IMG/VR virus record: IMGVR_UViG_3300044608_002311
Location: 1 to 27,749 of that record
DNA: 27,749 nt
Direction: 5' to 3' (one strand)
From: a virus
Taxonomy: Duplodnaviria; Caudoviricetes
A model generated the notes under the pieces. The model did no database searches, was not told where the DNA came from, and saw only the letters and a program-made list of their open reading frames with translations. How positions within the stretch are numbered: position 1 is the stretch's first letter; every line of letters starts with the position of its first letter. Below, piece by piece: positions 2,916 to 27,691 of the stretch. Both the position numbers and the translations under genes were made by a program.

Positions 2916-3684
2916 GTTCCCACCTGTCGAGGCCTTTGAAGTCGAAGGGGAGCTTTACGTCACGGATGGATTTTGCCGGGTGCTATCGGCGCAGAACGTT
3001 GGAAAGTCCAAGGTTCCCTGTCTAGTCAGAAAGGGATCTTGGCAGGATGCGGTAGCGGCTGCGTGCGGGGCTAATTCGCAGCATGGCCTACCGAGGACGA
3101 ACGCCGACAAGCGAAAAGCGGCGACGATGGCGATACTCGAGTTTTCCGACAAGCCTAACCGAGAGATAGCCAGGATTTGCGGGGTGAGTCATACCTATAT
3201 CGACAATCTGCGAATTAAACAAAACGAGGCTGATGCGATCGTCGAGGCGATCACTGAGGGCAAGGAATTACCAGCGTCGAAGCCCAAGCCAAGCCCAAAG
3301 CCTAAAGCAGCCCCTAAGCCTGATGCGTCGATCGTATCACCCGCTGGTTGGAAGTGCTCGGACTGTCACGGCACAGAGCAACGATTGACTGATGGGGGAT
3401 ACGTTTGCCGGGCTTGCTTGTTGCCGGTTCCTGATGGGAATGTGGCTCAAGAACCAGAGCAAGAAACGCAGGATGACGAGGCCCAGGAAGATCCCTTTGC
3501 GATCGTCGCAGAGCCTCCGCAGGTGGCAACGTTGCCAGCCGGACAAGACCCGATATCTGAATGGATGCCAGGGGTTCATACCGCCTGGGGTAAATTCATT
3601 CGGGCTTGTTCCTTGGCGAAATGCGATCAGGTTTTGAGGGCCGAAATCGAATCGATCACGAAGAAGCTCAAGGGCCTTCGATGA
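2788..3684 (+). CDS. ParB/Srx-like N-terminal domain protein with HTH and C-terminal Zn ribbon
   Basis: FPPV..F......VTDGFCR (ParB-N DGxHR-like), ANSQHGLPRTNADKRKA, HTH NREIARICGVSHTYI, CSDC..CRAC. GTG start at 2788 is inferred. Confidence 0.75.
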   Translation: MTIGKKKLVAVSLLKLDERLQCRESVPEETIRAYEDGWREKIEFPPVEAFEVEGELYVTDGFCRVLSAQNVGKSKVPCLVRKGSWQDAVAAACGANSQHGLPRTNADKRKAATMAILEFSDKPNREIARICGVSHTYIDNLRIKQNEADAIVEAITEGKELPASKPKPSPKPKAAPKPDASIVSPAGWKCSDCHGTEQRLTDGGYVCRACLLPVPDGNVAQEPEQETQDDEAQEDPFAIVAEPPQVATLPAGQDPISEWMPGVHTAWGKFIRACSLAKCDQVLRAEIESITKKLKGLR

Positions 3685-3816
3685 TCGACCTAGAGGCCAG
3701 GATTGAGAACGAAACAAACGACTGTCATCATCGAGCCCCCGATGGTGACGATGACTAAACCAAGAAACGTGCGTCGGGGGCTTCGATGCATGACTTTGTT
3801 CGCCTGTTTTTAGGGA

Positions 3817-4101
3817 GTGATTATGTATTTAGTGGTAGTAAGCGGAGCGTTTGACGACGTGCCAGTTAGGTTGTTTAGAGCATTAAAGGAAGCAAAAGCG
3901 TATGCGAAACAGCGATGGGATTCAAAAGAAAACGAAGCAACAGAGGAGCTTTACAAAGATGCGTGGGATGCCAGTCAATCAGCCAGTCTACCGGCGATTA
4001 ACGAAATCGCCGGTGTTCGCATTTTGCGGTTTCGTGATGGCGTTCTGGTTGGGTGTGTCTGTCACATTAGCGGGAGAGTCAAAAGTGGAAATGTGGGTTA
4101 A
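3817..4101 (+). CDS. Hypothetical protein
   Basis: GGGAG RBS; open frame. Confidence 0.6.
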   Translation: MIMYLVVVSGAFDDVPVRLFRALKEAKAYAKQRWDSKENEATEELYKDAWDASQSASLPAINEIAGVRILRFRDGVLVGCVCHISGRVKSGNVG

Positions 4102-4255
4102 GCGTTTGACGTATGCAGGAGTTTGGGAAGTAGTCAACCAATCCGGTGAGGTCATGGCCGCAAGCCTAAGCAGTACCGATGTCGTTAGCGAAGCGAACGC
4201 AGAAGCGGCTAAACGTGGAATTGCAATGATGATCGTGACGGAAGATAAAAAATGA
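4091..4255 (+). CDS. Hypothetical protein
   Basis: Overlaps both neighbours as in coupled phage operons; ATG 4091 chosen. Confidence 0.5.
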   Translation: MWVKRLTYAGVWEVVNQSGEVMAASLSSTDVVSEANAEAAKRGIAMMIVTEDKK

Positions 4256-4640: not shown

Positions 4641-4886
4641 ATGGCGCTTCGGATAATCAACGATAAGCGGTATTCGAGAGGTCGCTGGCGAGTCGTTGGT
4701 GACGATGGCGAGGCAATCCAAGTTCTCGAAACGATCAACACTCAAAACGGCCAGATAAAAGCAATGATGCCTTTTTGTGAGGACACAAAGGAAGAACTTC
4801 TTCGTCGTTTGCTGGATCTAGTCGAGGCACAAAACGAATTGATAAGGAAATATCGTGAGCAACTGGCCGCATCAAGACAGGGCTAA
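4641..4886 (+). CDS. Hypothetical protein with C-terminal coiled coil
   Basis: Open frame with heptad-like C-terminus. Confidence 0.6.
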   Translation: MALRIINDKRYSRGRWRVVGDDGEAIQVLETINTQNGQIKAMMPFCEDTKEELLRRLLDLVEAQNELIRKYREQLAASRQG

Positions 4887-6456
4887 AGAGCGAATCCGAG
4901 AGGCAAGGCTACGAGGCATCGGTGCCGTGATAGCAGCCGCACCATGCGGTGCCGGTAAGTCGCGAGTGATGCAGCAATTGGCCTGCGAAGAAGTTGACAA
5001 CGGGGGATCGGTGAGAATCTATCTCCACCGCACGATGCTAAAGGAACAGCTATCGGCAACGTTTACCACAGCCGGTATCGATCACGGCATTATGGCAGCA
5101 GGAAACGAGTACGATGAGTCCAAGCCGATTCAGATTTGCATGACGGACTCTGTGTTTGCTAGGGCGATCCGAGGGAGCAAGTGGGATCTAGGGAACCCGT
5201 CGCTGGTGATGTTCGATGAGGCCCACCTACAGGCCAAGAACAAAGCGATTTCGATCGTCAAAGGCGGGACTACGGCTTTCAATTCAACCTGGGATGGTCA
5301 TCAACAACGAGGCGCGTTCATCCTCGGTCTATCGGCAACGCCGGTTGGGTGCGGTGCTCTGTACGATGAAATGATCGACTTCGGGACATACTCGGAAATG
5401 CGATCGGTGAAGGCTCACTTGCCGGTAAGGGTCTACAGCCCAAGCGAAATTGATTGCTCGGGACTCAAGCAGGATATCGACAACGAATTTAGCTCTAAGC
5501 AACTAGAGCCGAGGGCTTACAAGATATTCGGGGATGCTTACGGGAATTGGAGAAAGCTGAACCCGGATAGCCTGCCAGCGATCCTGTTTGCTCCGTCGGT
5601 GCCTGCCTCAAGATGGTTCGCCGAAGAATGGGCCAAGATGGGCGTACCGGTTGCTCACATCGACGGGGAGACTTGCATGCTACCAAGCAGATCTTCGACC
5701 GGTGCAATCAAGATGGAGACCTACGACACAACCCAGGAGACCCGGCAACAGATCATGGATATGAGCCGAACCGGGGAAATCAAGGTTGTGATGAACCGGT
5801 TCATTTTGAGAGAGGCTATCGATATGCCTTGGCTGTATCACGGCATCGCGGCGACGGTGTTCGGGGGCATTGCGACCTATCTGCAGTCGGTCGGACGGAT
5901 CCAGCGGTATTTCCCTGAGTACGAGTACAAAATCTGGCAGAGTCACGGCGGTTGCTACTGGCGACACGGAAGCCCGAATATGGATCGAGACTGGGAACTA
6001 GGATGCACGAACAAAACGATCGCACAGGGCCGAGCCTCAAAGATAGCAAGGGCAGAGCGTCCTCAGGACGTTGAGGGAATTTGCTGTCCGAAATGCTCAG
6101 TATGGAGACAGTATGGAAAACGCTGTCCAGGTTGCGGTCACTCGCACGAGCAAAGCATCCGAAAGGTGCAAATGGTAAGCGGGGAATTGAAGTTGATGCG
6201 CGGAATCGTCAACAAGACAAAGAAAAAGGGCAAGCAGAAAACGTCCAACCAGATTTGGGTAAGCTGTCTTTTTGCGATGAGTCGATCAGGAAAGCCGGTC
6301 AGCAGTGCGGTATCGGTATGGCGTGCTCGATGTGCCAAAGAGGGCGTTTACCCGGACGTTAAAGAGCTTCGGTTCAAACCGCCTGAGGTTCATTCGATCG
6401 ATTGGCACAAGTTGGTCGCTGATGTGTTTCCGTGGACTAGGAAGCGGGTATCGTGA
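4855..6456 (+). CDS. Superfamily 2 DEAH helicase with C-terminal Zn finger (RadD/YejH-like phage helicase)
   Basis: Walker A APCGAGKS, motif II DEAH, motif III SAT, motif VI QSVGRIQR, CPKC..CPGC. Confidence 0.9.
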   Translation: MSNWPHQDRAKERIREARLRGIGAVIAAAPCGAGKSRVMQQLACEEVDNGGSVRIYLHRTMLKEQLSATFTTAGIDHGIMAAGNEYDESKPIQICMTDSVFARAIRGSKWDLGNPSLVMFDEAHLQAKNKAISIVKGGTTAFNSTWDGHQQRGAFILGLSATPVGCGALYDEMIDFGTYSEMRSVKAHLPVRVYSPSEIDCSGLKQDIDNEFSSKQLEPRAYKIFGDAYGNWRKLNPDSLPAILFAPSVPASRWFAEEWAKMGVPVAHIDGETCMLPSRSSTGAIKMETYDTTQETRQQIMDMSRTGEIKVVMNRFILREAIDMPWLYHGIAATVFGGIATYLQSVGRIQRYFPEYEYKIWQSHGGCYWRHGSPNMDRDWELGCTNKTIAQGRASKIARAERPQDVEGICCPKCSVWRQYGKRCPGCGHSHEQSIRKVQMVSGELKLMRGIVNKTKKKGKQKTSNQIWVSCLFAMSRSGKPVSSAVSVWRARCAKEGVYPDVKELRFKPPEVHSIDWHKLVADVFPWTRKRVS

Positions 6457-6970: not shown

Positions 6971-7471
6971 TTGACGCATTGGAGATCGTTGAGCATGACG
7001 GGGAAGCAGGATCGATTCACGAGACGTATCGTCCCTGGCAGGGAACCAAGGAAGCAGGCCTGCTCGACGAGCTTATCGAAGCCTTGGGAGCAAGACGACT
7101 ACAGCGCGAAGATTGAATACGATGCTATGCGGTCGCTATTCGATCGCTGTTGGGCCTGTGGCGCTCGGTCGAAGCCTCAAGGGTATTATGGGCCGTGGCT
7201 TATCGAACGTGCCCATATTGCGAACAAGCCTCGCAGGGAGGATCGCAGGTTGGTAGTCATGCTTTGCACGATTTGCCACAAGTGGAGTCATGGCGAACGG
7301 GTGGCAACGTTTCCACGACCGAAGCTCGATGCAGGGCATCTAGTGACCCTCAAGGCAGAGCGTGACCCGGAGTGGTTCGACTTGGAATTCATCAACAGGC
7401 ACTCAGTACGGATCTTGGAAGCCGAGCCGGTGCAGCCGTGGTACGAGCTAGAAAGAGGGAAATCGTGGTAA
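6971..7471 (+). CDS. HNH-like Zn-binding nuclease (true start possibly ATG 7127)
   Basis: RCWACG..IERAHI..LCTICH pattern. Confidence 0.65.
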   Translation: MTHWRSLSMTGKQDRFTRRIVPGREPRKQACSTSLSKPWEQDDYSAKIEYDAMRSLFDRCWACGARSKPQGYYGPWLIERAHIANKPRREDRRLVVMLCTICHKWSHGERVATFPRPKLDAGHLVTLKAERDPEWFDLEFINRHSVRILEAEPVQPWYELERGKSW

Positions 7472-8397: not shown

Positions 8398-8563
8398 GGA
8401 AAAACGAAAACAAGCTGAGGCAGAGTTCACGAAAAAGCTGGCTGCGTTGCAGAAGGGTTTCGACGAACTCCAAACGCAGATTGACGAGCAAAATCGAAGG
8501 TTCGAGGCCTTTGAAAAGCGTCTCGATGAGCGCGATCGGCTGGCAACGTTGCCAGAGGAATAA
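8387..8563 (+). CDS. 58-aa coiled-coil protein (not in the ORF track)
   Basis: Translated by hand: MTCEEKRKQAEAEFTKKLAALQKGFDELQTQIDEQNRRFEAFEKRLDERDRLATLPEE; overlaps the sigma stop. Confidence 0.6.
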   Translation: MTCEEKRKQAEAEFTKKLAALQKGFDELQTQIDEQNRRFEAFEKRLDERDRLATLPEE

Positions 8564-8601
8564 TAGGTTTTTTGATTCTTCAAAAGAAATTTGAGAAAAG
8601 T

Positions 8602-8838
8602 ATGTTTCAAGATATGGGAATAAAACCGAAAGGCGAAGAAATTCGAATCAGGTTGGACAGCGGTGCGAATTGCGATAGTGCAAACGTTCAGATAGTTATG
8701 CCTGTGGATCTTGGATTCGAAAATAAGGCAGCGTTTTTATCTGCTAGCGATGAGCAAAAGCATCAGGCCTTAGTCGAATTCTTCAACGGTGATGGATATC
8801 CCGAGTACTCTTGGGATGTCGAAAAGTCGCAGGAATAA
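8602..8838 (+). CDS. Hypothetical protein
   Basis: Open frame in the operon. Confidence 0.6.
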   Translation: MFQDMGIKPKGEEIRIRLDSGANCDSANVQIVMPVDLGFENKAAFLSASDEQKHQALVEFFNGDGYPEYSWDVEKSQE

Positions 8839-8840
8839 AG

Positions 8841-8989
8841 GTTTGGCGGCCTACTCCGAGCGATGCCGAATAAGCTGGAAGGGCATCGCGACGAGGAATC
8901 GCTAGGCAGTGCTAAGAGAGCCTCGGTAGCATGATCCGGAAATCCTTAGCAGCGGGTGGCAAGGTTTTGCATAGTCTCCAAACTAGGCC
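8841..8989 (+). ncRNA. Candidate structured intergenic RNA
   Basis: Stems GTTTGG/CCAAAC (8841/8978), GCGATGCC/GGCATCGC (8860/8882) and TGCTAAG/CTTAGCA (8910/8945) in an ORF-free gap. Confidence 0.35.
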
Positions 8990-9009
8990 TCCTTTCTTGT
9001 TGAACCCGT

Positions 9010-9042
9010 ACCCGGTGGCTGACCAAGGCTGCCGGGTTTTTT
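9010..9042 (+). terminator. Rho-independent terminator
   Basis: Stem ACCCGGTGGC/GCTGCCGGGT followed by a T-run. Confidence 0.8.
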
Positions 9043-9061
9043 CATACACTTAGAGGGCAAA

Positions 9062-9259
9062 ATGGACGACGAAAAGGAACCGATAGCAAGCAGCCGGGAG
9101 CTTGAGCTATACCTAGAGCGCAAGTCGATTTGCATCGTCGATGGAGTCCCAAGGGAACAGGCGATCGCGATTGCATTCGATCAGGTTAAGGGGTCGCTCA
9201 AGCCGAACCAAATGCCGGACAAGATCGCAAGGGATTTGCAGAGCGTCAGAAAAAAGTAG
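9062..9259 (+). CDS. Hypothetical protein
   Basis: GAGG RBS; ERxxIxxxDG pattern; ends ARDLQSVRKK. Confidence 0.7.
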   Translation: MDDEKEPIASSRELELYLERKSICIVDGVPREQAIAIAFDQVKGSLKPNQMPDKIARDLQSVRKK

Positions 9260-9446
9260 CAAGGGAAATTATGAGGGCGCGACAGTCAAAAAAAATAATT
9301 GCTAGCTTGAAGGTCGTTAACGGCAAATGGTCTACTAGAGTACGCAAAAGAACATTAGCTAAGGCTTGGCATGTTTTTTATGTGAGGATGCGTCGAAAGA
9401 AAAATAGGGACGCAAGGGATTTGCAGAGCGTCAGAAAAAAGTAGCA
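9226..9446 (+). repeat. 36-bp direct repeat CGCAAGGGATTTGCAGAGCGTCAGAAAAAAGTAGCA at 9226-9261 and 9411-9446
   Basis: Two identical copies. Confidence 0.95.
9271..9444 (+). CDS. 57-aa basic protein ending in the duplicated ARDLQSVRKK (not in the ORF track)
   Basis: AAGGGA RBS; reads in frame into the second repeat copy. Confidence 0.6.
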   Translation: MRARQSKKIIASLKVVNGKWSTRVRKRTLAKAWHVFYVRMRRKKNRDARDLQSVRKK

Positions 9447-9497
9447 TTGTTTTTTTGTTTCACAGGTGGCAACGTTGCCAGCAAGGAACGTTAGAAA

Positions 9498-9644
9498 ATG
9501 AAATTGAGTAGCTCGGAATACGCAGCGTTTGTGATTGCTTTCGTTGCGTGCTTGCCACTGATTTTGATGGTCGTTGTGGTCGCTGCATTCTTCGGGATCA
9601 TTCAGATCATCGTTGAGGCTGTCCGAGCCTTATTCAAGTTCTAA
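9498..9644 (+). CDS. 48-aa hydrophobic membrane peptide (not in the ORF track)
   Basis: MKLSSSEYAAFVIAFVACLPLILMVVVVAAFFGIIQIIVEAVRALFKF; AAGGA RBS. Confidence 0.6.
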   Translation: MKLSSSEYAAFVIAFVACLPLILMVVVVAAFFGIIQIIVEAVRALFKF

Positions 9645-9732
9645 GGCTAGAAAAAAACAGCGTTGCGTTTTTCTGCAAAGTGGCAACGTTGCCAGTGAGA
9701 AAGTTGGTTTTTGGGCATGTGAGGCCTTAAAG

Positions 9733-9927
9733 ATGAGCGATGAAATCCAGTACACTTTCAAGACGTACCGCCTAGCGTGGAAGATTCTACCTGGCGAATT
9801 GGAGCCCGATGCAAGGCCAGCACCGTCGCAAGAAATTGTCAGGCCGAAGAATGGCAAGTTGTTTGTAGGGTCGCTTGATTTGATTGAGGCTGCGAAGGAA
9901 ATGGAACGCATCCTGCTAGCACAATGA
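9733..9927 (+). CDS. Hypothetical protein
   Basis: GAGG RBS before ATG 9733. Confidence 0.55.
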   Translation: MSDEIQYTFKTYRLAWKILPGELEPDARPAPSQEIVRPKNGKLFVGSLDLIEAAKEMERILLAQ

Positions 9928-10057
9928 CGGGACGCAAGCGAAACAATCCCACTAGCTCGATCCGGTTTTCAGTGGCAACGTTGCCAGCGCTGATTTGCAA
10001 AACGGCATCGGATAGTCTAGGATTTTGCAGTCCATCCATCCCTCAAAAGGTGATCCA

Positions 10058-11326
10058 ATGCCGAAAGAGAAAAACGCATCCGGTGCGAACGAGCCCTCGA
10101 AGTGGCGCTCAAAAATCGTAGGCCACGAGAAGGTTCAAGCCGGTCAGCTAATGGCCAACCCGTTCAATCACCGCAGGCACCCAGAAAAGCAGCGCAAGGT
10201 CGTTGCAGCCTCGATCGAGGAACTAGGGTTCATCAAGTCGGTGCTTGTCAACAAGGTCACGGGTCATATCGTCGATGGCCACGAACGGGTCATGCAGGCC
10301 CTGGGCGTAGGAGAGGAAACCCTAGTTGACGTTGAGTACGTCGAGCTATCGCCTGAGGACGAAAAGAAGGCTTTGCTTGTGCTGGATGCGTCGTCGGAGC
10401 TTGCCGAGGTCGATGCGTCGTCGCTGAATCAGTTGGTTAAAGAATGTGCGTTCGATATGGGCGTGCTCGATGATTTGGCGAAGGAAATGCTGGCAGATTT
10501 CCCGATGGTCGATGATGAACCTAAGATTACTGAGGACGACATACCAGAGCCTCCGGTCGATCCGATCACGAAGTTGGGCGACTTGTGGATTCTTGGCGAG
10601 CATCGCGTTTTGTGCGGCGATAGCACGAAAGCGGAGGATGTGGCTAGATTGATGGGCGGCAAGAGGGCGGACATGGTTTTTACGGATCCGCCGTACAACT
10701 GCGCCGACGAAATGAGCGAATCGTTTTACGCAAACGCAAACTCTCCGGCCATGAAGGGATTGGCGGCGGCAAAGTGGGACAAAGGGTTTAGCCCGGATGA
10801 GTTCCTCAATCGCGTTGAAGAAATTAGGCCAGACAACGGGACTGTGTACGTTTGCACATCCCACATGCTGGCACCTGAGATATGGTCTTACATGGAAAAA
10901 AGCAAGGCGACTCACAGTAGCTATCTTGTTTGGTGTAAGCCTAATCCTATGCCTTCTCTAGCAAAGAGGCACCCTACATGGGCGACCGAATTGATTTGCT
11001 ACGCGACGTTCGGAAAGCATGTTTTCAACTTCCCGGAAGAGGGTCATAGCCTTTCGTGGTGGAGCATAAACAAGAACGCAAAAAACGATCTTCACCCAAC
11101 TCAAAAGCCGGTTGCTGTCCCGGCTAAGGCTATTGAGTTAAGCAGCAAGCCTGGGCAGGTCATTGCGGATTTATTTCTCGGCTCCGGCACTACTCTAATC
11201 GCAGCCGAGCAACTCGGACGCAAGTGTTACGGAATGGAAATCAGCCCGCAGTATTGCGATGTTATTGTAAAACGATGGGAAAACCTAACTGGTAAAAAGG
11301 CAGTTTTGGAGACTGTAAAAAGCTAG
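10058..11326 (+). CDS. ParB-N domain fused to a class-beta N6-adenine/N4-cytosine DNA methyltransferase
   Basis: N-terminal NP.N.R.H..IVDGHER (ParB-N), then GEHRVLCGDST, motif IV TDPPY, HPTQKP and motif I DLFLGSGTT. Confidence 0.9.
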   Translation: MPKEKNASGANEPSKWRSKIVGHEKVQAGQLMANPFNHRRHPEKQRKVVAASIEELGFIKSVLVNKVTGHIVDGHERVMQALGVGEETLVDVEYVELSPEDEKKALLVLDASSELAEVDASSLNQLVKECAFDMGVLDDLAKEMLADFPMVDDEPKITEDDIPEPPVDPITKLGDLWILGEHRVLCGDSTKAEDVARLMGGKRADMVFTDPPYNCADEMSESFYANANSPAMKGLAAAKWDKGFSPDEFLNRVEEIRPDNGTVYVCTSHMLAPEIWSYMEKSKATHSSYLVWCKPNPMPSLAKRHPTWATELICYATFGKHVFNFPEEGHSLSWWSINKNAKNDLHPTQKPVAVPAKAIELSSKPGQVIADLFLGSGTTLIAAEQLGRKCYGMEISPQYCDVIVKRWENLTGKKAVLETVKS

Positions 11327-14355: not shown

Positions 14356-14356
14356 A

Positions 14357-14863
14357 ATGACCTATTCGATTCAGACGGGAAACGGAACAGCGAAACTCAC
14401 CGGGGGGCAACTGCAGGGGCTCGTAAATCGGGGCAAGATCCAGCCGAGTACAGTAGTCGAGGTCGAGGGGTTCGGGCCATGTTTGGCAAGGGAAATCAAG
14501 TTTCTGAGTTGGCCGAAGGTGGCAACGTTGCCAGCGCCGAGCGAAGTTCAGACGCAAAGCGCAGAAAAAAGCAATGCTACTAATTTTCCGTTTAAGCGTT
14601 TGAATTGGCAAAGATCGATCCAGCGTGCATGGGGCTCGGCATTGGTCGTTGCCATCGGGCTTGCTGTTCTGTGGGTGCTTTATCCGGCTTTGGTTTTCGC
14701 ACCGTGGAGCATTGGGGTAATCTGCAGCGTTATACTAGGGGCGTTTCTGGTCGGCGTGGTCAGCTTCGTTCGGGTGGTGCTTGAGGCTCTAGCGTTGTTT
14801 CTTGGGGGGCAAAATGGATCGGTCAATCGTCAGGCTAAAGATCGAGGAAGTAGCCCAGCTTGA
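14357..14863 (+). CDS. Membrane protein with a GYF_2-like N-terminus
   Basis: QLQGLVNRGKIQPSTVV resembles GYF_2 domains (recall); two hydrophobic helices. Confidence 0.6.
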   Translation: MTYSIQTGNGTAKLTGGQLQGLVNRGKIQPSTVVEVEGFGPCLAREIKFLSWPKVATLPAPSEVQTQSAEKSNATNFPFKRLNWQRSIQRAWGSALVVAIGLAVLWVLYPALVFAPWSIGVICSVILGAFLVGVVSFVRVVLEALALFLGGQNGSVNRQAKDRGSSPA

Positions 14864-15068: not shown

Positions 15069-15225
15069 CATTGCGTTTTTCTGTCGCTGGCAACGTTGCC
15101 AGGGCGTTTTCTAAAAACCCAATGTTTTCATTGGTCGGAGTGAATTACGGCCGTAAATTTCTGGCCTGCCTGATTGCGCCAAATTGCGTCGAATTGCGTC
15201 AAAAATAATGTGCCAACGTGGGCAC
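15067..15225. promoter_or_regulatory. Operator-dense intergenic region
   Basis: A-tract motif 15070-15083, 14-bp palindrome at 15088, palindrome TTACGGCCGTAA 15145-15156, three 10-bp tandem units 15171-15200 and imperfect palindrome 15210-15225. Confidence 0.55.
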
Positions 15226-15520: not shown

Positions 15521-16080
15521 GCGAATTGCAGCCAACGGTTGAGGCCCAGGTCGAGCTAGACCGACAGCAGGAGCAAATCGAACGTCAAAAAGCAGAGCTT
15601 GAAGCGTCGAAGGTGGCAACATTGCCAGCAGAGGATCCGTTTCGGGTCATGGGTTCGCAGGCTGCAAACGATCGCGTCGAGGCTGTTTTGGCGAAAGTCG
15701 AACAGGCCCCAAAGGTGGAAACGTTGCCAGCGCAAGACCCGTTTGCAAAGGCTGTCGAAGCATGGGCAGGCGATGAATCGGACGATCAGGTAGAACCGCT
15801 AGAAGGCGAAACGATCGATACGCTTTTGCATCTAGGTGCAACGTCGATCGAGTTCCAAGGCCAGCAGTTCGAGGTCACCGAGGAAATCGTCGAAGGCGTG
15901 CAGCCTGTCATAAAGGCCAACGAGGAGCAAATTAAGATAGCATTCAAGATGCTCAGGGAAGGGGTTGCAGAGCTTTGCGATGCACTATCGTCGAGGCCAA
16001 CCGAAAGTTATTTCGATGATGCGTTTTTTATTCGCATTGAAATCAACAAGCTCGAAGCCAAAATCTTCCCTGCAAGCTAA
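15517..16080 (+). CDS. Acidic hypothetical protein with an internal KV(A/E)TLPAxDPF repeat
   Basis: ATGA overlap; both repeats carry palindrome variants. Confidence 0.65.
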   Translation: MSELQPTVEAQVELDRQQEQIERQKAELEASKVATLPAEDPFRVMGSQAANDRVEAVLAKVEQAPKVETLPAQDPFAKAVEAWAGDESDDQVEPLEGETIDTLLHLGATSIEFQGQQFEVTEEIVEGVQPVIKANEEQIKIAFKMLREGVAELCDALSSRPTESYFDDAFFIRIEINKLEAKIFPAS

Positions 16081-17970: not shown

Positions 17971-18385
17971 CTGGTTGGTTCTGATTGGGATTTTGGCTGC
18001 GGTTGCCTTTGTGTGGCTGGCAACGTTGCCACGGATACCGAGCGAGCCGAAGGATCAGCTTGACGAGTCGATCGACTGGAATATCTCCGAAGGCGACAGG
18101 TCGAGCCGCTGGACAGAGGTGCGAAACAATTTCGTCAAAAAGCACCCCGTATGTGAAGCATGCGGAACCTCGGCGGCATTGAATGTACATCACGTGGAAC
18201 CGTTCCATGTGAGGCCAGAACTGGAGCTTGCCGAGTCGAACCTGATCACCCTTTGCAGGGAGCATCACTTTCGAATCGGACATGATCCTGATGGGCCTTG
18301 GCGACCGAAGAAACCAAGCTGGTCGGAAGCGAATCCGATGGTTCGATTCCATGCCGAGCAGTTCAGAGAGGGCAGGCGATACTGA
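17954..18385 (+). CDS. HNH endonuclease with an N-terminal hydrophobic anchor
   Basis: CEACG..LNVHHVEP..PEL...SNLITLCREHH; N-terminal WLVLIGILAAVAFVWLA. Confidence 0.8.
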   Translation: MMKISSWLVLIGILAAVAFVWLATLPRIPSEPKDQLDESIDWNISEGDRSSRWTEVRNNFVKKHPVCEACGTSAALNVHHVEPFHVRPELELAESNLITLCREHHFRIGHDPDGPWRPKKPSWSEANPMVRFHAEQFREGRRY

Positions 18386-19840: not shown

Positions 19841-20099
19841 CAAGCGAGAGCGATTCAGCAAGCAGCTAGCGCGTGTCTTGATGATCCTAGAGCGTTTGAG
19901 GCTCAATGGTAACTCGACGATCATGCAGGCCTATGAGCACCTTCGGAAGTCTGGAATCGAATGCAGCTCTCGAACGGTCGCTCGTGACTTAGCAACGCTT
20001 GAGGCTTGTGGGTTTGTTGAGCGTGAGGAATCGTTGGAAGATGGTTCATTTGTGTACGGTTTGACTGGCAACGTTGCCAGCGGGAAGGAAAGAAACTAG
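19833..20099 (+). CDS. Winged-HTH protein (like the N-terminal HTH of WYL regulators)
   Basis: RVLMILERL..CSSRTVARDLATLEACGF; GGAGG RBS. Confidence 0.75.
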   Translation: MSSKRERFSKQLARVLMILERLRLNGNSTIMQAYEHLRKSGIECSSRTVARDLATLEACGFVEREESLEDGSFVYGLTGNVASGKERN

Positions 20100-20341
20100 T
20101 GATCCGATACGTCAAAAATTGGCAGAACGTTCCGAGCGCAAAAGCCTGCCTTGGTCGTTGGGTGTTTCAGTTGAGTTTCAAAAGCGACCGTATTTACGCT
20201 GCGGGGTGGTATATCTTCAGGCTCGGTTTGTACAAGGTTAGCGACACAGTGCCCGAAGGTGCGTACATGTTCCGAAAGGGAAATTACAAAGGTTTTCTTT
20301 GGGTTGTTCGCATTTGGCTACCGATCGAGTTCGGGTTCTAG
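20099..20341 (+). CDS. Hypothetical protein
   Basis: Abuts the previous stop. Confidence 0.5.
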   Translation: MIRYVKNWQNVPSAKACLGRWVFQLSFKSDRIYAAGWYIFRLGLYKVSDTVPEGAYMFRKGNYKGFLWVVRIWLPIEFGF

Positions 20342-20372
20342 GTGGCAACGTTGCCAGCGCGCAGAAAAAAGC

Positions 20373-20669
20373 ATGACTACTTTTATTGGTGAAATCGGGT
20401 TGGTTTCGATCCTCTATGCGGTAACTTGCTTGGGTGCATTTTGCGTCCTCGTAGGTGCTTTCTGCGGGATCAGATTTCATCTACGGCGATTGATCGAGGC
20501 AGCCGATCAGTACCGTGAGGCATCGAGGATTTATAGGCAAGCAAAAGAATTGACCGAAACGCAACTCGGTGGCGTTGAATCGTTGCTACAAGAACTAGAC
20601 GACCTAAAGGCTCAAACAGCGTGGTTTGACCGGATAACGGATCGTCAACCGAATTGGGAATATCAGTGA
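20373..20669 (+). CDS. Membrane-anchored coiled-coil protein
   Basis: N-terminal hydrophobic helix followed by heptads. Confidence 0.6.
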   Translation: MTTFIGEIGLVSILYAVTCLGAFCVLVGAFCGIRFHLRRLIEAADQYREASRIYRQAKELTETQLGGVESLLQELDDLKAQTAWFDRITDRQPNWEYQ

Positions 20670-20802
20670 GGTAAAGCAATGAGCGAGTTTGTTTATCGCA
20701 TCATGCCAATGGTGACTGTTTGCACAATGTTTTTTGGTGCACACCTATTGATTGCGATTTTTGAATTTATTCGACACAGGTAATTTAACAGGAGAGTCAA
20801 AC

Positions 20803-21510
20803 GTGACTGAGATGACTGAACAAAAGATCGAGCAATTCTGGCGGGATGCAACCGCCGGGGACATCGCCAAGGTGATGCGAGGCGAGTCCATTATGGTGCG
20901 GGTTAGACAGGAATCTAGCCAAAACTGGGTTAGCACCGATGTCGATGGATATGATCTGAATATTACTGGATGGGATCGCGGAAGATTCATTGATAGCGAA
21001 GGCGAACAATGGGATCAGTGTCAAGTCTACGATCCGCCACAATGGTGGCTGGACAGGCCCGATCCCGGCGAAGGCTATCGACTGCTTAAAAAGTTTCCAG
21101 ATGAGCCGAAACTAGCGACGGATGAATTCTTTGACCCCCTTTTTAACAGATGGACGCGAACAGCTACTACCGGCGAGACTCAATCTGATGGTGCTTGGTA
21201 TCGCCGACGCATCGAGCCGAACAATCCGAAAAAATTGGATGGTTCACACTCTAAAGACAATATTCCAACCGGATGGCGATTGCTCAACGACGACGAGGAA
21301 AGGTTCGCTAGCGATGCGTTTTGGTCGATCGGTGCAAAAGACTGGGTTATCATCGGAGATGAACTCGTTTTTGTCGCGAATAGCCAAAAGTGGTTAGCGA
21401 TTCGGCAGAACGAGACGCAAAAGACCATGCAACTGGTGCTGTGGCATCAATATCGATTACCGAACGGTCGCTCAATTAAAGTCACCAAGGAAGGCTTTGA
21501 GTTGCTATAA
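20803..21510 (+). CDS. Modular hypothetical protein (RDAT..CQVYDP domain plus two PxG[WY]RLL modules)
   Basis: AGGAG RBS before GTG 20803. Confidence 0.7.
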   Translation: MTEMTEQKIEQFWRDATAGDIAKVMRGESIMVRVRQESSQNWVSTDVDGYDLNITGWDRGRFIDSEGEQWDQCQVYDPPQWWLDRPDPGEGYRLLKKFPDEPKLATDEFFDPLFNRWTRTATTGETQSDGAWYRRRIEPNNPKKLDGSHSKDNIPTGWRLLNDDEERFASDAFWSIGAKDWVIIGDELVFVANSQKWLAIRQNETQKTMQLVLWHQYRLPNGRSIKVTKEGFELL

Positions 21511-21530
21511 TCCGGCCCAAAGGCAAGTAG

Positions 21531-22109
21531 CTACTCGACGAACCGAATAACATCGGCAACGTCGAGCGTTACGAACGGCTGGCCAGTCCAGGCCATGACC
21601 GACACTGCAAATGAAACCAGCGGGGCCGGTGTTTCTGAGGAATCGATTTCAATCAGGGGTACGAGCTTTCTGTCGTGCTTGACCCCATAAAGATATCGGG
21701 CTGCATCCTGCGTCATGCAAACCCCTTCTAAATTAGCAACATTGCGTTTTTCTGCGCATTGCCGAGCCCAGGCGGATTTGGTGTAGTTGACTCGATCGAC
21801 CAGTTCAGTTTTTAGATCGTAGTGACTTAGCAGGCTCTTTGTTGCCGGGCGTGACTCAAAAAAATAGGAAGCCTCGGCGATCGTGATATAACCCTGGGGA
21901 ATTACCCTCGGCGGTCGCTTCGTGGCAGGAAGCTCCAACCGGCTGATTCTCGATCGGAGTTTTCGGTCATATTGCCAAGCGAGCTTTCCCGATAGGTGGG
22001 CAGAAACGGTATTCCGGGCTAGCTCCAAACGTTCTGATATTTTCGTCTTTGGAGTGCCACAATGGGCCATCCAAAAGATTTGGTACACTGTTTGACTGTC
22101 GATTCGCAT
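21531..22109 (-). CDS. HTH DNA-binding protein, divergent from the portal gene
   Basis: TPKTKISERLELARNTVSAHL HTH and a second YITIAEAS excisionase-like motif; occupies an otherwise empty gap. Confidence 0.65.
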   Translation of the reverse strand: MRIDSQTVYQIFWMAHCGTPKTKISERLELARNTVSAHLSGKLAWQYDRKLRSRISRLELPATKRPPRVIPQGYITIAEASYFFESRPATKSLLSHYDLKTELVDRVNYTKSAWARQCAEKRNVANLEGVCMTQDAARYLYGVKHDRKLVPLIEIDSSETPAPLVSFAVSVMAWTGQPFVTLDVADVIRFVE

Positions 22110-22151
22110 AGTGAGCACAAATCGGCTAGGATTGATTTTGGAGGCCTTAAA

Positions 22152-25100
22152 ATGAATCGAATTGTCGAAGCGATGCAGGGTAGTTTAACAGAATCTTGGG
22201 GCGAACCGGTAGACATTACCGAGTTCCTTACTGATTCCACTGGGTTCTTTAATACCACCGGGCTAGGTGCATTTACCCAGGTTTGGGACAGATCGGACGG
22301 ACGGTACCGGCCAGTCTACACGAATGAGGCCGAACTAAAGATCATCCGGGCGATGTCGTGGCTGCTGGTCGAGAAGGTTCCTATGGCCCAGGCTTGGGTC
22401 AATCGTCTGTTGGATTACACGATCGGAACTGGGTTCGATTGGACAATCAAGTGCGATGATAAGCGACTAGAAAAGGCGGTTCAGGCTTACGTCAGGGAGT
22501 GCCTCGATACGTCGAAATGGTCATCGGAGCTTGAGCGCGAAACGATGGTTCGGGAAGTCTCAGAAGGGGAGTTCTCTGGGGAACTGATCTACGATAACGG
22601 ACAGTGCATGTTGGTCGCTCGGGAGGCCGACGAGCTTACAGAACCGGCAGCCAAGCGCGAGCTTGAGGACTGGCTCGGAATCGAGTTCGATGCCTCTTGG
22701 ACGTTCGGGGTGTTGACCAAGAAATCCGTTCCTGAAAAGCACTACGGCTATCACTTCGTGAAAAATGCAGCCGGTACGGATTGGGACTATGTGCCAGCAG
22801 AACGGGTTGTTTTTTGGAAACGAAACGTTAGGCAACGAGCCAAGCGGGGTTACTCCGACTTCTACAAGCCTCACCTGTATTTGCTCCGCGCAGATCGGGT
22901 TTTGACCAACACTGCAGAGGGGGCAGCAACCCAAGCAGCCATTGCATACATCGTCGAACACAGCGAGGGAACGCAACGTCAGGCCGATAACATCGTCAAG
23001 AAATTCGCACCGCTTACGGGGCGAGTGGATCCGATGACTGGGCTATCGCAACGCAAAAGGAGGATGCTCCCAGGTACACGGCTCGACGTTCCAGCAGGCC
23101 AGAACTACAAAGCTGGTTTGCTAGGATCGAACAATAGCGACATTTATATCTCGGTCATGGAATCGGCTCTGAGGCTTGCCGGTACCGTCCATGCGTTCCC
23201 GGAAGGGATGCTGACCGGAAGCTACGAGAACAACAATTTGGCCTCTGCGATCGTTGCCGAGGGGCCATTCGTTCAGGGCCGGATTGCGGAGCAAACGCAG
23301 CGCAAAGAGCGAATGCGTGAAATGATTTTGAAGATCGTCAAGCTCGGGGCAAACAACCGGAGGTTCGGGGTCTATGGCTATGCGACCTGGGAAGCGATCC
23401 AGGACTTGATTACCATCGAGGTCATTCCACCGAAGATCATCCCGCTGGATCCGATCAAGCACACGCAGGCGCTAGCGATGCAGAGGGATAAAGGTTGGGT
23501 CAGCGACAAGACAGCGATGAACGAACTAGGCCGGGATATCGACACGGAAACCGCCAACGGATTGAAGGTCGCAGGGGCCGAACAGCAAGCCGGAACAGGT
23601 GCTCAACCGAGCGTTCAAGCTGGCAACGTTGCCAACAAAACCGGACAGGAAACCGGGTCGGATGCTGGCAACGTTGCCAGCCCTGAGGCTCAAATATCGA
23701 GCAATTGGCAGGGTTTATCGCGTTTGCAGTGGAATCGAAACCGCAGGGCGATGGCCGACGTTTTGGCCGATTTCATGGCAGGAAAAACGACTCGGCAAGT
23801 CGCATCGGTACTGCTCAAGTCGATCGGGATGGATGATAAATCGATCGAGGCAATTCTGACCGATGCCGAGGATGGTTCGATTGATGATCCGATGCCACTG
23901 ACCGAGGCAGAACGAAAGACTTTAGGCAAGCCGTTTCGCACACCAGGGGGGCCAAAGAAGTTCTCTGTCTACGTCAAGAACGATAAGGGCAACGTGGTAA
24001 AGGTGAACTTCGGCGATACGAAAATGAGGATCAAGCGGCAAAATCCAGGAAGCCGTAGAGGGTTTCGGGCTCGGCATAATTGCCAAGACCCAGGGCCACG
24101 CTGGAAGGCTCGCTACTGGTCTTGTCGGTTCTGGTCGAGGCCAAGCGTCACGAAGCTGCTAAAGGAATCGTTTTCAGGTGAGTACACTTGGGACGGTAGG
24201 ACTTTCGTTTCCGAGGCATGGCTGCATCGAGTCAACCCTGCTTTGCTTGAGGTTCGCTGTCCAACTGGAAAGGGTGGAGGGATTGATAATTCGTGCAAGC
24301 GTAAGAACAAAAAGCCTGTCAATCCGAAGGTTCTCGATTGGGCCAAGAAAAAGTTCAAGGACGATGCGAAGGCGCAAAACTTTGCTGAGTGGTTCGGTGA
24401 CTCAAAAGCAGTTGATGAGGATGGAAACCCATTGTTGCTATTTCATGGAACGAATGCGCAATTTGATGAGTTTTCTAAATCGACAAATGTGCATTCGCAA
24501 TCGATTGATTGGCCAGTTCATTTTATGACCGATGATATCAATCTTGCAAAAGCATACGCAGCTTCGCGTGTCGCTGAATTGCAATCAGGAAAAAAGACCA
24601 TAATTCCTGGTTACATGAGCATGCAACGTCCTCTTGTAATCGATGCAAAAGGTCGCGAATGGACGGATGTTGTCGGTGATGTCACTAGTGAATTGAACAC
24701 CTATCGAACCAAAGAAGAAAAAGAGTTTCGGGAGTTTAGTGCTGAGCTTCGTGAAAAATACAAATTGGAATTTGATTGGGATCCTGAATTTGAAGTTCCA
24801 AAAGATGAGCAGGAAAAATTCCAAAAGCTCAGGGCGAAATACGAAGAGCAAATAACAGACAGATCTCACCCTATCCGTAAAATGGAACCTCAAGGGATTG
24901 CGTACTATGATGGAGTAATCATCAAAAACGTTTATGATCGTCCACCAATTGAAGGCTCTGGAGGTACTTTCAATCCCTTCAATAATGTCTACGCAGTATT
25001 CGATTCATCGCAAATCAAATCCACGAAAAACAAAGGCACATTCAATCCTGACTCCAACAAGATCACAGAATCACTTACGGAGGCCAAAGACGGAGACGGA

Positions 25101-25892
25101 GACGGTCTGATCGATGATGGTAAGCCAACACAGCGAGCAGCACCAAAAAAGCAATCGAAAAACAAAAGCTCGACACTTGCAACCAAGGTTAAGATTGAAG
25201 GGAATCTTCCGACGGAACCTCCGAGCGGTAACGACTTAGACAGTATTGCAAGGAAGTTTGTCGATGATGGCATAAAATACAACAAGCTGACAGCGAAAAC
25301 ATTGAAGGTAAAAGCAAACGGAAAAACGAAATCGCTTAGCCTCGATGGTGTTGCTCGGGATGAAAACTGGCAACCTGTGTTTTTCGCAGACAAAGCAAAC
25401 AACTACTATCAAAAGTCCGGCGATGATATTGTTCCGTTGCAAGGATCCATCGAAGACGTTCGAAAGGCGAGATTCGAGCAAGGGAAACGCGCGGCATTGA
25501 ACTCGTTTGAGTTTCAGCAAAAGTTCAACAAGCGAACCTATGATCTGGCTAATGAAATTGCAGATGCTGGTTACTCTGTGAGAATCAATGTTCCAGACGA
25601 TTCAACTAGCCGGTACATCTATGTCGATGTTCCAGGGCGTGAGAAAGAGTTCAAAATTCGTATCGCCGATCACGCCCAACCCGGCTATTCTGCAGGCGGT
25701 AAGAAAGTCAATCTCGGAGGGTTTTCTAAGGAGCTTGGAAAACGCCACGAAGCATCCGATATCAGCATCGACCCGACTACCGGAAGCACTTTGAAAGATG
25801 CCTTGGATGCTGTGAAAAACCTGGGCCGTAAACAGGAATCGTTTACAGGTCGCCAAAAGGCCATGCTAGAACGCTGGAAGGATTATCCGTAA
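22152..25892 (+). CDS. Portal protein with C-terminal cargo domains including an ADP-ribosyltransferase-like domain
   Basis: About 450 N-terminal aa are portal-like (TIGTGF, EGE, RG.S.F, G..S..TA..ELG.D), directly upstream of MuF and the protease. The extension has NF..WFGDSK.VD..G.P...FHGT..F.T..A..YA..YDGVI..YAVF...QIKS. GGAGG RBS. Confidence 0.8.
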   Translation: MNRIVEAMQGSLTESWGEPVDITEFLTDSTGFFNTTGLGAFTQVWDRSDGRYRPVYTNEAELKIIRAMSWLLVEKVPMAQAWVNRLLDYTIGTGFDWTIKCDDKRLEKAVQAYVRECLDTSKWSSELERETMVREVSEGEFSGELIYDNGQCMLVAREADELTEPAAKRELEDWLGIEFDASWTFGVLTKKSVPEKHYGYHFVKNAAGTDWDYVPAERVVFWKRNVRQRAKRGYSDFYKPHLYLLRADRVLTNTAEGAATQAAIAYIVEHSEGTQRQADNIVKKFAPLTGRVDPMTGLSQRKRRMLPGTRLDVPAGQNYKAGLLGSNNSDIYISVMESALRLAGTVHAFPEGMLTGSYENNNLASAIVAEGPFVQGRIAEQTQRKERMREMILKIVKLGANNRRFGVYGYATWEAIQDLITIEVIPPKIIPLDPIKHTQALAMQRDKGWVSDKTAMNELGRDIDTETANGLKVAGAEQQAGTGAQPSVQAGNVANKTGQETGSDAGNVASPEAQISSNWQGLSRLQWNRNRRAMADVLADFMAGKTTRQVASVLLKSIGMDDKSIEAILTDAEDGSIDDPMPLTEAERKTLGKPFRTPGGPKKFSVYVKNDKGNVVKVNFGDTKMRIKRQNPGSRRGFRARHNCQDPGPRWKARYWSCRFWSRPSVTKLLKESFSGEYTWDGRTFVSEAWLHRVNPALLEVRCPTGKGGGIDNSCKRKNKKPVNPKVLDWAKKKFKDDAKAQNFAEWFGDSKAVDEDGNPLLLFHGTNAQFDEFSKSTNVHSQSIDWPVHFMTDDINLAKAYAASRVAELQSGKKTIIPGYMSMQRPLVIDAKGREWTDVVGDVTSELNTYRTKEEKEFREFSAELREKYKLEFDWDPEFEVPKDEQEKFQKLRAKYEEQITDRSHPIRKMEPQGIAYYDGVIIKNVYDRPPIEGSGGTFNPFNNVYAVFDSSQIKSTKNKGTFNPDSNKITESLTEAKDGDGDGLIDDGKPTQRAAPKKQSKNKSSTLATKVKIEGNLPTEPPSGNDLDSIARKFVDDGIKYNKLTAKTLKVKANGKTKSLSLDGVARDENWQPVFFADKANNYYQKSGDDIVPLQGSIEDVRKARFEQGKRAALNSFEFQQKFNKRTYDLANEIADAGYSVRINVPDDSTSRYIYVDVPGREKEFKIRIADHAQPGYSAGGKKVNLGGFSKELGKRHEASDISIDPTTGSTLKDALDAVKNLGRKQESFTGRQKAMLERWKDYP

Positions 25893-26563
25893 TGCCAGAC
25901 CTTCGAGGCCGCAAACGTTACGAGCAACGCATCCAAGAAGCCATGCAGGAAGTATTCGCAGAGGCCTTGAAGGTAGTCGATCAGGGCCTAGATGCCGTGA
26001 ATCGTGCAATAAAAGCAGCATTGCAAAAATACGTTGGGCCGATCATCGAGGAAGTGCATCGGCGGGTAATTATCGCTTTGCTGATCCTGTTTGGTGATGA
26101 TGATCTAGGCCGATCGGTGCTAGGCGATGCATCGAAGAAAAAAGGGCCTATCTATGATGACCTGATCGAGCAGGCGAAGCGCCGAGCATCAAAACAGGTT
26201 GACGACCTGGGCGAACAAATGAGCGACACCAATTCAAGTTGGTGGGACGAGTGGGACGAGGAAGAACCGATAGAAGATTGGGCCAGCGAACGATTGTTTC
26301 CGGACTCTCGCGCTGGCAACGTTGCCATCACAGAGACTACCAATGCAGTGACGATCGGCGAGGCAACCGTAGTAGAAACCATGCGGGAGCTTGGCGTTGG
26401 CGTTACGGCTCGTTGGTACACGAAGCGGGACGAAAGAGTATGCCCAGTGTGTGGGCCACTGCATGAGACGGGGCCAGCGAACTGGGCTGATGACTTCGCG
26501 ATGGGGCCACCTGCCCACCCTCGATGCCGATGCTACCTACTGTATTTTTTGGGTGAGCAATAG
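25892..26563 (+). CDS. MuF/SPP1 gp7-like minor head protein
   Basis: RA..IA.TET-like segment, DERVCPVC and PPAHPRCRC. Confidence 0.85.
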   Translation: MPDLRGRKRYEQRIQEAMQEVFAEALKVVDQGLDAVNRAIKAALQKYVGPIIEEVHRRVIIALLILFGDDDLGRSVLGDASKKKGPIYDDLIEQAKRRASKQVDDLGEQMSDTNSSWWDEWDEEEPIEDWASERLFPDSRAGNVAITETTNAVTIGEATVVETMRELGVGVTARWYTKRDERVCPVCGPLHETGPANWADDFAMGPPAHPRCRCYLLYFLGEQ

Positions 26564-26581
26564 CCAGTTAAGATTTCTCGC

Positions 26582-27691
26582 ATGAGCAAGTTCATTCGAG
26601 AATCTCAAAGCGGATACGAACGCATCGACAAGGATGCAGGGATCATCTACGGGGTGAAGGTCTTAGGGCCTCAGTCCCGTAATGGTCGCGTTTATGAGGC
26701 TGAGGCAATCGCCAACGCCTTACCGCTTTACGAAGGGGTCTCGGTGAATCTCAATCACCAACGTATCGAGCCGAAGTCTCAAGTACAGCAAGACCGACGG
26801 ATAGAGGATCGATGGGGCGTTCTCAAGAATGCACGCCTCAAGGATGGATCGATCTACGCCGACCTTCATTACCTCAAAACACATCCGACAACCCCGCAGC
26901 TTATCGAAGCAGCCGAGCGGTTTCCGGAAACGTTTGGCCTGTCCCACGATGCAGCTGGGGACGAGCAGGTAATCGACGGTAAGCGCCGGGTGTTCGAACT
27001 GCTTGACGTTCAGTCGGTCGATGTCGTTACAGATCCAGCAACCAACAACGGACTTTTCGAGAGCCAAGAGCGAGTCATGAAAAAGAAATTCAAAGCGATT
27101 GTCGAATCCTGTGAAGCCGAAATGCGTCCTCCGATGGAAGGCATGATGAAAGCCTATCCTGAGCTTCAGGAAATGGACGTTGAGTACGGCGACGACGAAG
27201 GTGACAACGGCATCGGGCAAGCCTTCAAAATGGCGATGATGAAGGTGCTCGACGATTCGACGCTCGATACCGCTGGCAAGTTGGCCAAGATTAAGGCGAT
27301 CATGATGGCCAAAGAACAGGCCGATGCTGCGATGGGCTCGGGCATGACCGAGGAAGAAATGGCCAAGAAGAAAGCCATGGAAGAATCAGAAAAACGCAAC
27401 GTTGCGAATCTCTGCGAATCGCTGACCAAGGAAGTAGAATCGCTCAAGAGCGAGCTTCAAAACAACAAGTGCAAAACGCTGCTTGTTGAATCGAACATCG
27501 AGCCAACGGCGCTGCGAATCAAGGCTCTGCTTCCGCTGAATCAAGCCGATCGAATTGAGCTTGCTAAGACCTGGAAGCCTGGCAACGTTGCCACCGGAAA
27601 GCGTCCAGAGCGTACCGGATCGGTGATGCACGAATCCGGCTCGGGAGCGTATCCCGCAGACTTCAAAGAATTTTCGAGGATGCTCGGCTAG
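26582..27691 (+). CDS. Prohead protease fused to scaffold
   Basis: SRNGRVY, NLNH, GLSH and SVDVVTDPA resemble T4 gp21/HK97-type head maturation proteases; acidic, Met-rich coiled-coil C-terminus. Confidence 0.8.
   Translation: MSKFIRESQSGYERIDKDAGIIYGVKVLGPQSRNGRVYEAEAIANALPLYEGVSVNLNHQRIEPKSQVQQDRRIEDRWGVLKNARLKDGSIYADLHYLKTHPTTPQLIEAAERFPETFGLSHDAAGDEQVIDGKRRVFELLDVQSVDVVTDPATNNGLFESQERVMKKKFKAIVESCEAEMRPPMEGMMKAYPELQEMDVEYGDDEGDNGIGQAFKMAMMKVLDDSTLDTAGKLAKIKAIMMAKEQADAAMGSGMTEEEMAKKKAMEESEKRNVANLCESLTKEVESLKSELQNNKCKTLLVESNIEPTALRIKALLPLNQADRIELAKTWKPGNVATGKRPERTGSVMHESGSGAYPADFKEFSRMLG

Follow-up and report, generated by a model that had tools for sequence, protein, structure and literature searches.

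The origin of replication used by the Lambda O and repABC RepC initiators is located inside the initiator's own gene, where iterons are accompanied by an AT-rich region, and the lambdoid layout places such a DNA-binding gene, with its own site, before the helicase; in a comparable manner, a parS site is found inside spo0J. The current study concerns a 27,749-bp whole virus record of an uncultured lake phage (IMGVR_UViG_3300044608_002311), analysed over its full length and referred to below as the window, in which a 14-bp palindrome, TGGCAACGTTGCCA, recurs throughout coding and intergenic DNA and is very probably read by the product of open reading frame (ORF) 2788, a ParB-like protein whose own gene harbours one of the copies.

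Genome-wide symmetric repeats have been described in Cluster O mycobacteriophages, which carry approximately 34 symmetric 17-bp dyad repeats per genome, both genic and intergenic and absent from the host, and which encode the ParB-like protein gp90; the reader of these repeats was left unidentified and the authors thought it unlikely that gp90 is involved in genome stability (PMC4351075). For ParB and Noc it is established that specificity can be switched by few helix-turn-helix (HTH) residues (PMC7383237). A 2025 survey of partner-less ParB-fold phage proteins contains, in its available text, neither 'palindrom' nor 'inverted repeat' (bioRxiv 10.1101/2025.10.10.680097), and no account of the sites or code of the phrog_1033-type family, to which ORF 2788 belongs, was found in a literature search whose coverage left out most subscription papers and bioRxiv supplements.

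The palindrome array and its counterpart in sister phages

Compared with complete relatives, the window appears to represent about half of a tailed phage genome of approximately 60 kb. A run search placed the stretch in 24 freshwater or lake DNA sequencing runs, while no RNA runs containing it were listed. The 14 perfect copies of the palindrome and the three single-mismatch copies (7302..7315, 15614..15627 and 15716..15729) reported by the original prediction, which was made from the sequence without database searches, were all recovered, at a frequency of approximately one per 2 kb, coding sequence included. When up to two mismatches were permitted 18 matches were obtained against a shuffle mean of 0.17, and none of 100 shuffles reached 18. 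Of the 28 half-sites, 26 are flanked by G or C. The copies are spaced no more evenly than random (P=0.56), and their density, approximately 0.6 per kb when near copies are counted, lies at the top of the family range. The array recurs in independent assemblies of two close relatives (17 perfect copies in 27.6 kb of G001 and nine in 15.8 kb of G004) and is therefore no assembly artefact; it represents a real, phage-specific operator array.

Five of the perfect copies are intergenic, at 9467..9480 (17 bp before the ATG at 9498), 9681..9694, 9973..9986 (upstream of a gene encoding a ParB-methyltransferase fusion), 15088..15101 and 20343..20356. The remaining nine are intragenic and, as originally described, are read in two frames. 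In the first of these the palindrome encodes VATLP within ORF 2788 itself (3524..3537) and in ORF 14357 (14520..14533), and LATLP in the tail of ORF 8387 (8541..8554) and in the HNH gene 17954 (18018..18031), the last of these sites not being present at this place in G001 or the sister phages. In the second it encodes GNVA, as observed in the tail of the HTH-containing ORF 19833 (20066..20079), twice in the portal fusion protein, within its linker (23621..23634 and 23666..23679), in a Mu-F-like minor head gene (26314..26327) and in ORF 26582 (27580..27593). The one-mismatch copies translate as VATFP, VATLP and VETLP; those at 15614 and 15716, both in ORF 15517, are perfect in G001, and the former is also perfect in G004.

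Based on the window's own codon usage, the motif codons would be expected with P=0.009 for ATLP and P=0.013 for GNVA, whereas they are used by four of five ATLP peptides (the fifth having one mismatch) and by five of six GNVA peptides. Since the use of motif codons far exceeds this expectation, selection acts on the DNA, thereby substantiating the earlier claim. Two sites were moreover gained in this lineage over conserved peptides, an IAGF-type sequence of the sister phages being replaced by VATF at 7302, and AETVA by AGNVA at 26314.

A count of the motif in relatives, proposed as a check in the original prediction, revealed that it is kept in G001 and G004 and replaced by TGGAAACGTTTCCA in a clade of sister phages, whose ORF 2788 orthologues are approximately 48–56% identical to that of the window. 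Copies of TGGAAACGTTTCCA number 11 in the complete genome G002, seven in G003, 20 in G459, 23 in G460 and eight in G461, none of which contains the motif of the window, and G463 holds six copies together with one variant. At four orthologous coding sites both arms have changed, with an accompanying amino-acid change: that at 3524, where the sister clade carries TGGAAACGTTTCCA; that at 14520 (VETFP in L273); that at 23666 (GNVS in G002 and G003); and that at 27580 (GNVS in G002). The site network as a whole thus switches in concert to another sequence, and this switch is paid for by altered residues in head proteins. Across ten arrays, spacing is more even than random in four (G459, P=0.003; G461, P=0.005; G430, P=0.025; G460, P=0.028). 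A half-switched array was observed in G462 (L275), where five copies are asymmetric through a change in one arm, two are sister-type palindromes and one is fully switched; it is possible that this mixed set is a snapshot of a change in specificity.

ORF 2788 as the probable reader

ORF 2788 (2788..3684, + strand) matches phrog_1033 in PHROGs and has no match in Pfam. Its product displays a ParB/Srx nucleotide-binding fold as N-terminal domain, an HTH, zinc-ribbon-like CxxC pairs and a C-terminal helical hairpin, and its predicted model matches ParB, Noc and KorB structures. The HTH segment corresponds to aa 122–142 (3151..3213, + strand), in which R125, S134, H135, T136 and Y137 occupy the positions that covary with the half-site, as outlined below. 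Family loci were gathered from viral and metagenome collections, yielding 237 with a hidden Markov model hit, of which 17 without a parsable helix and then 56 redundant entries were removed, leaving 164. In 75 of these 164 genes a perfect palindrome with 8-bp arms lies within 90 nt behind the gene's own HTH, as compared to none of the 164 in an equal upstream control window. Four palindromes lacked T at position 1 and were set aside, and the remaining 71 were placed in a common register to serve as code rows; six of these have a wider centre, in which the seventh base is not strictly palindromic.

Mutual information across the 71 rows reaches z values of 10–20 (at the best site position) for HTH positions R3, S12, H13, T14 and F/Y15, with weaker covariation (z 5–6) at positions 2, 10 and 17 and no signal at the nearly invariant positions of the hydrophobic core. 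The pairings observed are Arg3 with G2, His13 with G3, Asp or Glu13 with C3, and Phe or Tyr15 with C7. When the half-site was taken from the nearest neighbour as defined by the five residues, excluding pairs at least 60% identical, 4.58 of six half-site bases were recovered, a value that is optimistic as the five positions were picked from the same 71 rows; the same test gave 2.55 with N-domain identity, 2.66 with other helix positions and 2.35 at random. For ORF 2788 itself the output of the code is TGGCAAC, with training proteins that are at most 37% identical in the N-domain.

The prediction was also examined outside the code rows. For a reverse test, 50 of 117 motif-bearing viral records were picked for several matches or length, three being already known family hits. 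The family is encoded in 13 of the 50 (7/13 of the near-complete ones), and an SHT[FY] helix occurs in 10 of the 13 motif-bearing family members (9 of 12 distinct ones) versus 5 of 119 in the background (P=2e-8 on 9/12). The records concerned include G419 with 11 motif copies, G421 with seven, G423 with six and G430 with five. The site predicted for an SHPF helix occurs eight times in G489, the genome that encodes this helix, and is absent from 27 other genomes, while the in-gene palindrome of GenBank MW202545 is present eight times in that genome. The window encodes eight candidate DNA-binding proteins or domains; when these were sought in four unrelated complete or near-complete phages with the same array (G419, G421, G430 and G442), ORF 2788 and the helicase alone were recovered.

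Covariation and out-of-sample prediction therefore both support the notion that site specificity is set by HTH residues, and we are highly confident that ORF 2788 would prove to be the protein that reads the palindrome. The original prediction of an array bound by the two ParB-domain proteins can thereby be retained in a narrowed form, in which ORF 2788 is the probable reader and the ParB-methyltransferase is not.

A number of observations detract from this reading. Tree-independent pairs all point in the expected direction, but there are only three to six of them, which is below significance. The code returns TGGCAAC for four of five sister-clade helices tested and TGGTAAC for the fifth, the true half-site being TGGAAAC or a variant. 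Among 36 close homologues, for which peptides only were compared, T136 pairs with ATLP only if D or N is present at helix position 2, and in the close clade (peptides only) T136 is also found with ETFP, ETFT and ATFP. Half-site position 4 thus appears to be only partly explained by the code, and these data suggest that T136 may specify C4 only alongside D or N at helix position 2. In addition, four perfect motif copies in G430 accompany an SRQY helix, while SSMT proteins were encountered twice in records with a single motif copy.

The number of sites differs greatly between relatives. In the 71 relatives with an in-gene site approximately 750 kb of flanking DNA held only five further copies within one mismatch, nine whole records with an in-gene site contained no palindrome in more than three copies, and one to 14 copies were present in nine records of the other type, in which the gene has no internal site; copy number is accordingly a lineage trait. 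Among cultured phages only distant members of the family were encountered (Vibrio phage CHOED and Aeromonas phages MQM1 and 1233), with neither a perfect palindrome with 7-bp arms in the gene nor a TGNNAACGTTNNCA site. In CHOED and MQM1 (among L540, L541 and L543) the distant family member lies upstream of an RNA polymerase gene.

Proposed clamp loading, a possible role in replication and alternative functions

Concerning the nucleotide pocket, alignment to Q52, R54, G92, R95 and N127 of Myxococcus xanthus ParB revealed that ORF 2788 retains the corresponding residues as Q21-x-R23, G61-F-C-R64 and N96, and the aligned residues are kept across the family. Because these Q, R, G, R and N residues are kept, nucleotide-dependent clamp loading by ORF 2788 appears probable, if clearly less assured than its reading of the site. 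The position of the catalytic glutamate E93 (in GERR) is occupied by Phe in 157 of 164 family members (DGFHR in 150 and DGFCR in seven; alignment to 7BNK). For the E93A variant of M. xanthus ParB, closure is retained and spreading extends over 125 kb (bioRxiv 10.1101/2021.05.05.442810), and some ParB-fold proteins bind ATP or GTP (bioRxiv 10.1101/2025.10.10.680097).

In the mechanism that we propose, a dimer of ORF 2788 would dock on the palindrome with one HTH per half-site and would then likely close as a nucleotide-bound clamp, the nucleotide not necessarily being CTP, and spread along the phage DNA. Phe at the E93 position may slow release and make long spreading possible, which could explain why one in-gene site suffices in many relatives. 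The spread clamp would act as a label on the phage genome and may attract the adjacent SF2 helicase so that the phage DNA is replicated, while multiplication of the site in this lineage would permit loading everywhere on the phage's own DNA, but not on that of relatives with another code.

This role is suggested by the position of the gene. The SF2 DNA helicase (phrog_16; 4855..6456, + strand) is the family's conserved downstream neighbour, being located within 2.5 kb downstream of the family gene in 81 of 109 loci; a primase comes next, and SSB or ERF clusters lie upstream in many loci. In the window the upstream neighbour is a gene for an ERF single-strand annealing protein (1778..2620, + strand), and an initiator-like layout is present, with the protein's own site inside its gene and the helicase downstream. 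Because the gene occupies the initiator slot (ERF/SSB, ParB-like, helicase, primase) and carries its own site in its own linker, we tentatively favour a clamp belonging to the replication module over KorB-like regulation, with a confidence that falls somewhat short of even, and a replication role overall is held marginally more cautiously still. The 48 of the 88 G002 ORFs that were scanned gave no match to any initiator, polymerase, primase, ParA, integrase or repressor family.

Several points weigh against a function in replication. There is no AT-rich unwinding stretch beside the in-gene sites (AT 0.44 versus 0.41) and no inflection of GC skew at the gene, gene order would appear to be the sole ground for the assignment, and an origin would not require copies in head genes. 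Furthermore, four of the five intergenic copies adjoin a second repeated element and are regulatory-looking. This element consists of an A-tract followed by GCAA-like bases and occurs in both orientations at 1107, 9247, 9432, 9668, 14562, 15076, 20362, 21747 and 27387. It lies within 50 bp of five of the 14 palindromes, including the intergenic copies at 9467, 9681, 15088 and 20343 (P=5e-5, for a pattern chosen after inspection), and it is kept in G002 and G003 despite their switched palindrome, among other places ahead of the ParB-modification and portal genes. A second factor, such as ORF 21531, may bind this element.

These observations lend themselves to an alternative in which the same reader, ORF 2788, controls transcription genome-wide in the manner of KorB, VirB or StrR, its clamps loading at the palindromes, sliding along the DNA and becoming locked at promoters by a second factor on the A-tract element. 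KorB, locked by KorA, represses promoters that lie between 4 bp and more than 1,000 bp from its OB sites (PMC11790492), and activators of the StrR/NovG type are distant relatives of ORF 2788 (PMC8306873). Besides the proximity of the second element, the location of site 9467 directly before a start codon would suit such a regulator. However, nine of the 14 copies lie deep in genes, the scarcity of further copies in relatives leaves many of them with a single mid-gene site, which would be an odd design for a global regulator, and the tight link to the helicase would go unexplained. We regard transcription control as possible yet unlikely.

It is less likely again that clamps of the same reader coat the incoming genome so as to compact, position or shield it, whether by Noc- or matS-like marking, anti-defence or hitch-hiking on host ParA or SMC. 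The four evenly spaced arrays and the 125-kb spreading of the Myxococcus variant, combined with the prevalence of Phe at the corresponding position, are in keeping with this idea, whereas the array of the window is not evenly spaced, in ORF 2788 the fold is preceded by almost no N-terminal tail, a six-frame search of the window and of the complete G002 revealed no KGGxGK Walker-A motif of a ParA, and the association with the helicase is again unaccounted for. The same lack of a ParA motif, together with the dispersed nature of the sites, argues against partition; of the suggestion that the sites are parS-like, only the part that concerns the probable mode of reading is upheld.

A different reader altogether is improbable. 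The window, being only part of a phage whose relatives measure approximately 60 kb, offers as candidates the ParB-N6/N4-methyltransferase fusion (10058..11326, + strand), which is flanked by sites, the HTH-containing ORF 19833, in which a site lies, the sigma-like ORF 7939 and ORF 21531, and a stoperator-type repressor or a host factor may also be envisaged. None of these four candidates was found in G419, G421, G430 or G442, on which grounds the methyltransferase was rejected, and ORF 19833 was likewise not found in the complete sister genome G002, where the slot of the methyltransferase is filled by a 7-deazaguanine cluster. A host factor would not explain the covariation with the helix of ORF 2788. 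The stoperator-like repressor sites originally considered find no support, the sites being symmetric and varying with the ParB-like helix, while the 48 of 88 G002 ORFs scanned yielded neither an integrase nor a repressor family. Sigma-54 and NFI-like readings were rejected on spacing relative to the consensus.

Most remote is the proposal that the motif is a host repeat, an uptake sequence, a peptide-driven repeat or an RNA hairpin, which might appeal to a probable planctomycete host and to a Gemmataceae genome with 18 perfect copies inside a longer repeat, but is already largely refuted as any copy is present in only eight of 401 Planctomycetota genomes (seven for the reversed control), matches in GTDB are nearly all single, the sister phages use a different sequence and the motif occurs in two frames with fixed codons. 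Equal density in a host chromosome, which was put forward as an objection at the outset, was thus not encountered in the genomes searched.

The occurrences outside the phage are nonetheless worth recording. The GTDB scan, covering 3 of 64 parts, yielded an estimated 3,600 or so stretches versus approximately 2,200 expected for uniform bases. The highest number among the 401 Planctomycetota genomes is five copies, in a genome where an integrase-like gene, and a family gene whose helix is SHTF, adjoin two of the copies together with two near copies. The GNAT gene of the phage has matches in three of three Planctomycetota genomes (E approximately 1e-25) and a weak one in one of seven other genomes, and because of these matches a planctomycete host is plausible. 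In the Gemmataceae metagenome-assembled genome (G007; L231, L232 and L343–L345) the 18 copies are spread over 6.7 Mb, approximately 200-fold sparser than in the phage, and are often paired approximately 50 bp apart within a longer intergenic repeat, while one Planctomycetota and one Desulfobacteraceae metagenome-assembled genome (L136 and L228) each contain a tight cluster of TGGCAAnnTTGCCA-like sites. Of the ORFs listed as neighbours of the Gemmataceae and L136 copies, none suggests a family gene, although no search aimed at family genes was made there. An unrelated 32-kb fragment (G005; L089–L091) contains four perfect and five one-mismatch copies, with no family gene in the part examined.

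Returning to the favoured replication-module clamp, a wider proposal is that phrog_1033-type ParB-fold clamps, which would be very widespread in phages, constitute a new class of proteins that initiate replication or load the helicase, with private in-gene palindromes, a five-residue code that confers orthogonal sites, and amplification in some lineages to 20–35 loading points per genome through the rewriting of proteins. We advance this generalisation as a speculative one, with less conviction than the replication role itself.

Other features of the window were also noted. ORF 21531 (21531–22118, − strand) is the only clear reverse-strand gene, is approximately 60% identical in sister phages, has a partial paralogue in G002 and has no match in Pfam or PHROG. 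ORFs 9062 and 9271 share the same terminal peptide by way of a direct repeat (9229–9266 and 9414–9446) that contains the second element, which suggests that a gene may have been inserted by recombination at this repeat. The slot at 10058–11326 contains in G002 (L261:7890-12574) two ParB-domain genes and the 7-deazaguanine cluster (TGT-like, QueD, QueE and GTP cyclohydrolase), and DNA-modification cassettes behind a ParB domain thus appear to be swappable. The terminase large subunit gene (11887–14355) has a LAGLIDADG intein-like insert at approximately aa 85–410, which is present in G003 and absent from G001, G002 and G004, while the portal protein (22152–25892) continues into a long fused extension, which contains a polyvalent ADP-ribosyltransferase domain (PF18760). 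A scan of positions 8500–22200 for sigma-70 promoters and terminators revealed nothing above shuffles (6 versus 10.2 and 18 versus 13.8, respectively).

Comparison with known systems

Lambda O and RepC resemble ORF 2788 in that the gene carries its own site and is located directly upstream of helicase functions, but their fold is unrelated and the AT-rich region that accompanies their origins was not found here. Some family members are labelled 'streptomycin biosynthesis regulator' in GenBank, and the StrR/NovG activators are ParB-fold proteins that act on dyad sites; their sites, unlike the palindrome of the window, are located in antibiotic gene clusters and contain a spacer of 11 bp, and the relationship is distant (PMC8306873). 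Like the array described here, the stoperators of Cluster A mycobacteriophages are numerous, genome-wide and also present in genes, but they lack symmetry, follow the direction of transcription and are targets of the immunity repressor (PMC4351075). The Cluster O repeats form a similar array in the presence of a ParB-like gene, although their sequence is different.

The system of the window shares with KorB-OB of plasmid RK2 a ParB-family HTH protein of a mobile element, palindromic operators both near to and far from promoters, and a structural match (PMC11790492). It differs in belonging to a phage, in the replacement of the GERR glutamate by F, in the tie between the gene and a helicase and in that no IncC/ParA motif was found; in addition, the site varies between phages together with the helix, and its number ranges from one to more than 20. 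Similarly, ParB-parS and Noc-NBS have the same fold, and in them a few HTH residues set the specificity for a palindrome, including an Arg of the first helix that contacts G (PMC7383237), whereas the family examined here offers dozens of natural helix/site pairs as opposed to two, has sites of 14–15 bp that are unclustered, shows no ParA motif in the window or G002 and has not kept E93. Of the hallmarks of ParABS, the ParB fold and the HTH are present, while no cognate ParA was detected and the sites lie genome-wide instead of clustering as a centromere.

Partner-less ParB-fold proteins are common in phages, and for one family of these the site can now be derived from sequence, with dozens of natural helix/site pairs that predict sites in unseen genomes and put a panel of orthogonal DNA-binding specificities on offer. 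Binding, nucleotide use and function are testable with one small protein and a 20-bp oligonucleotide. Based on these comparisons, we conclude that the ORF 2788 system is likely KorB-OB- and ParB-parS-like in the manner in which its site is read, and that it is likely neither a ParABS nor a stoperator system.

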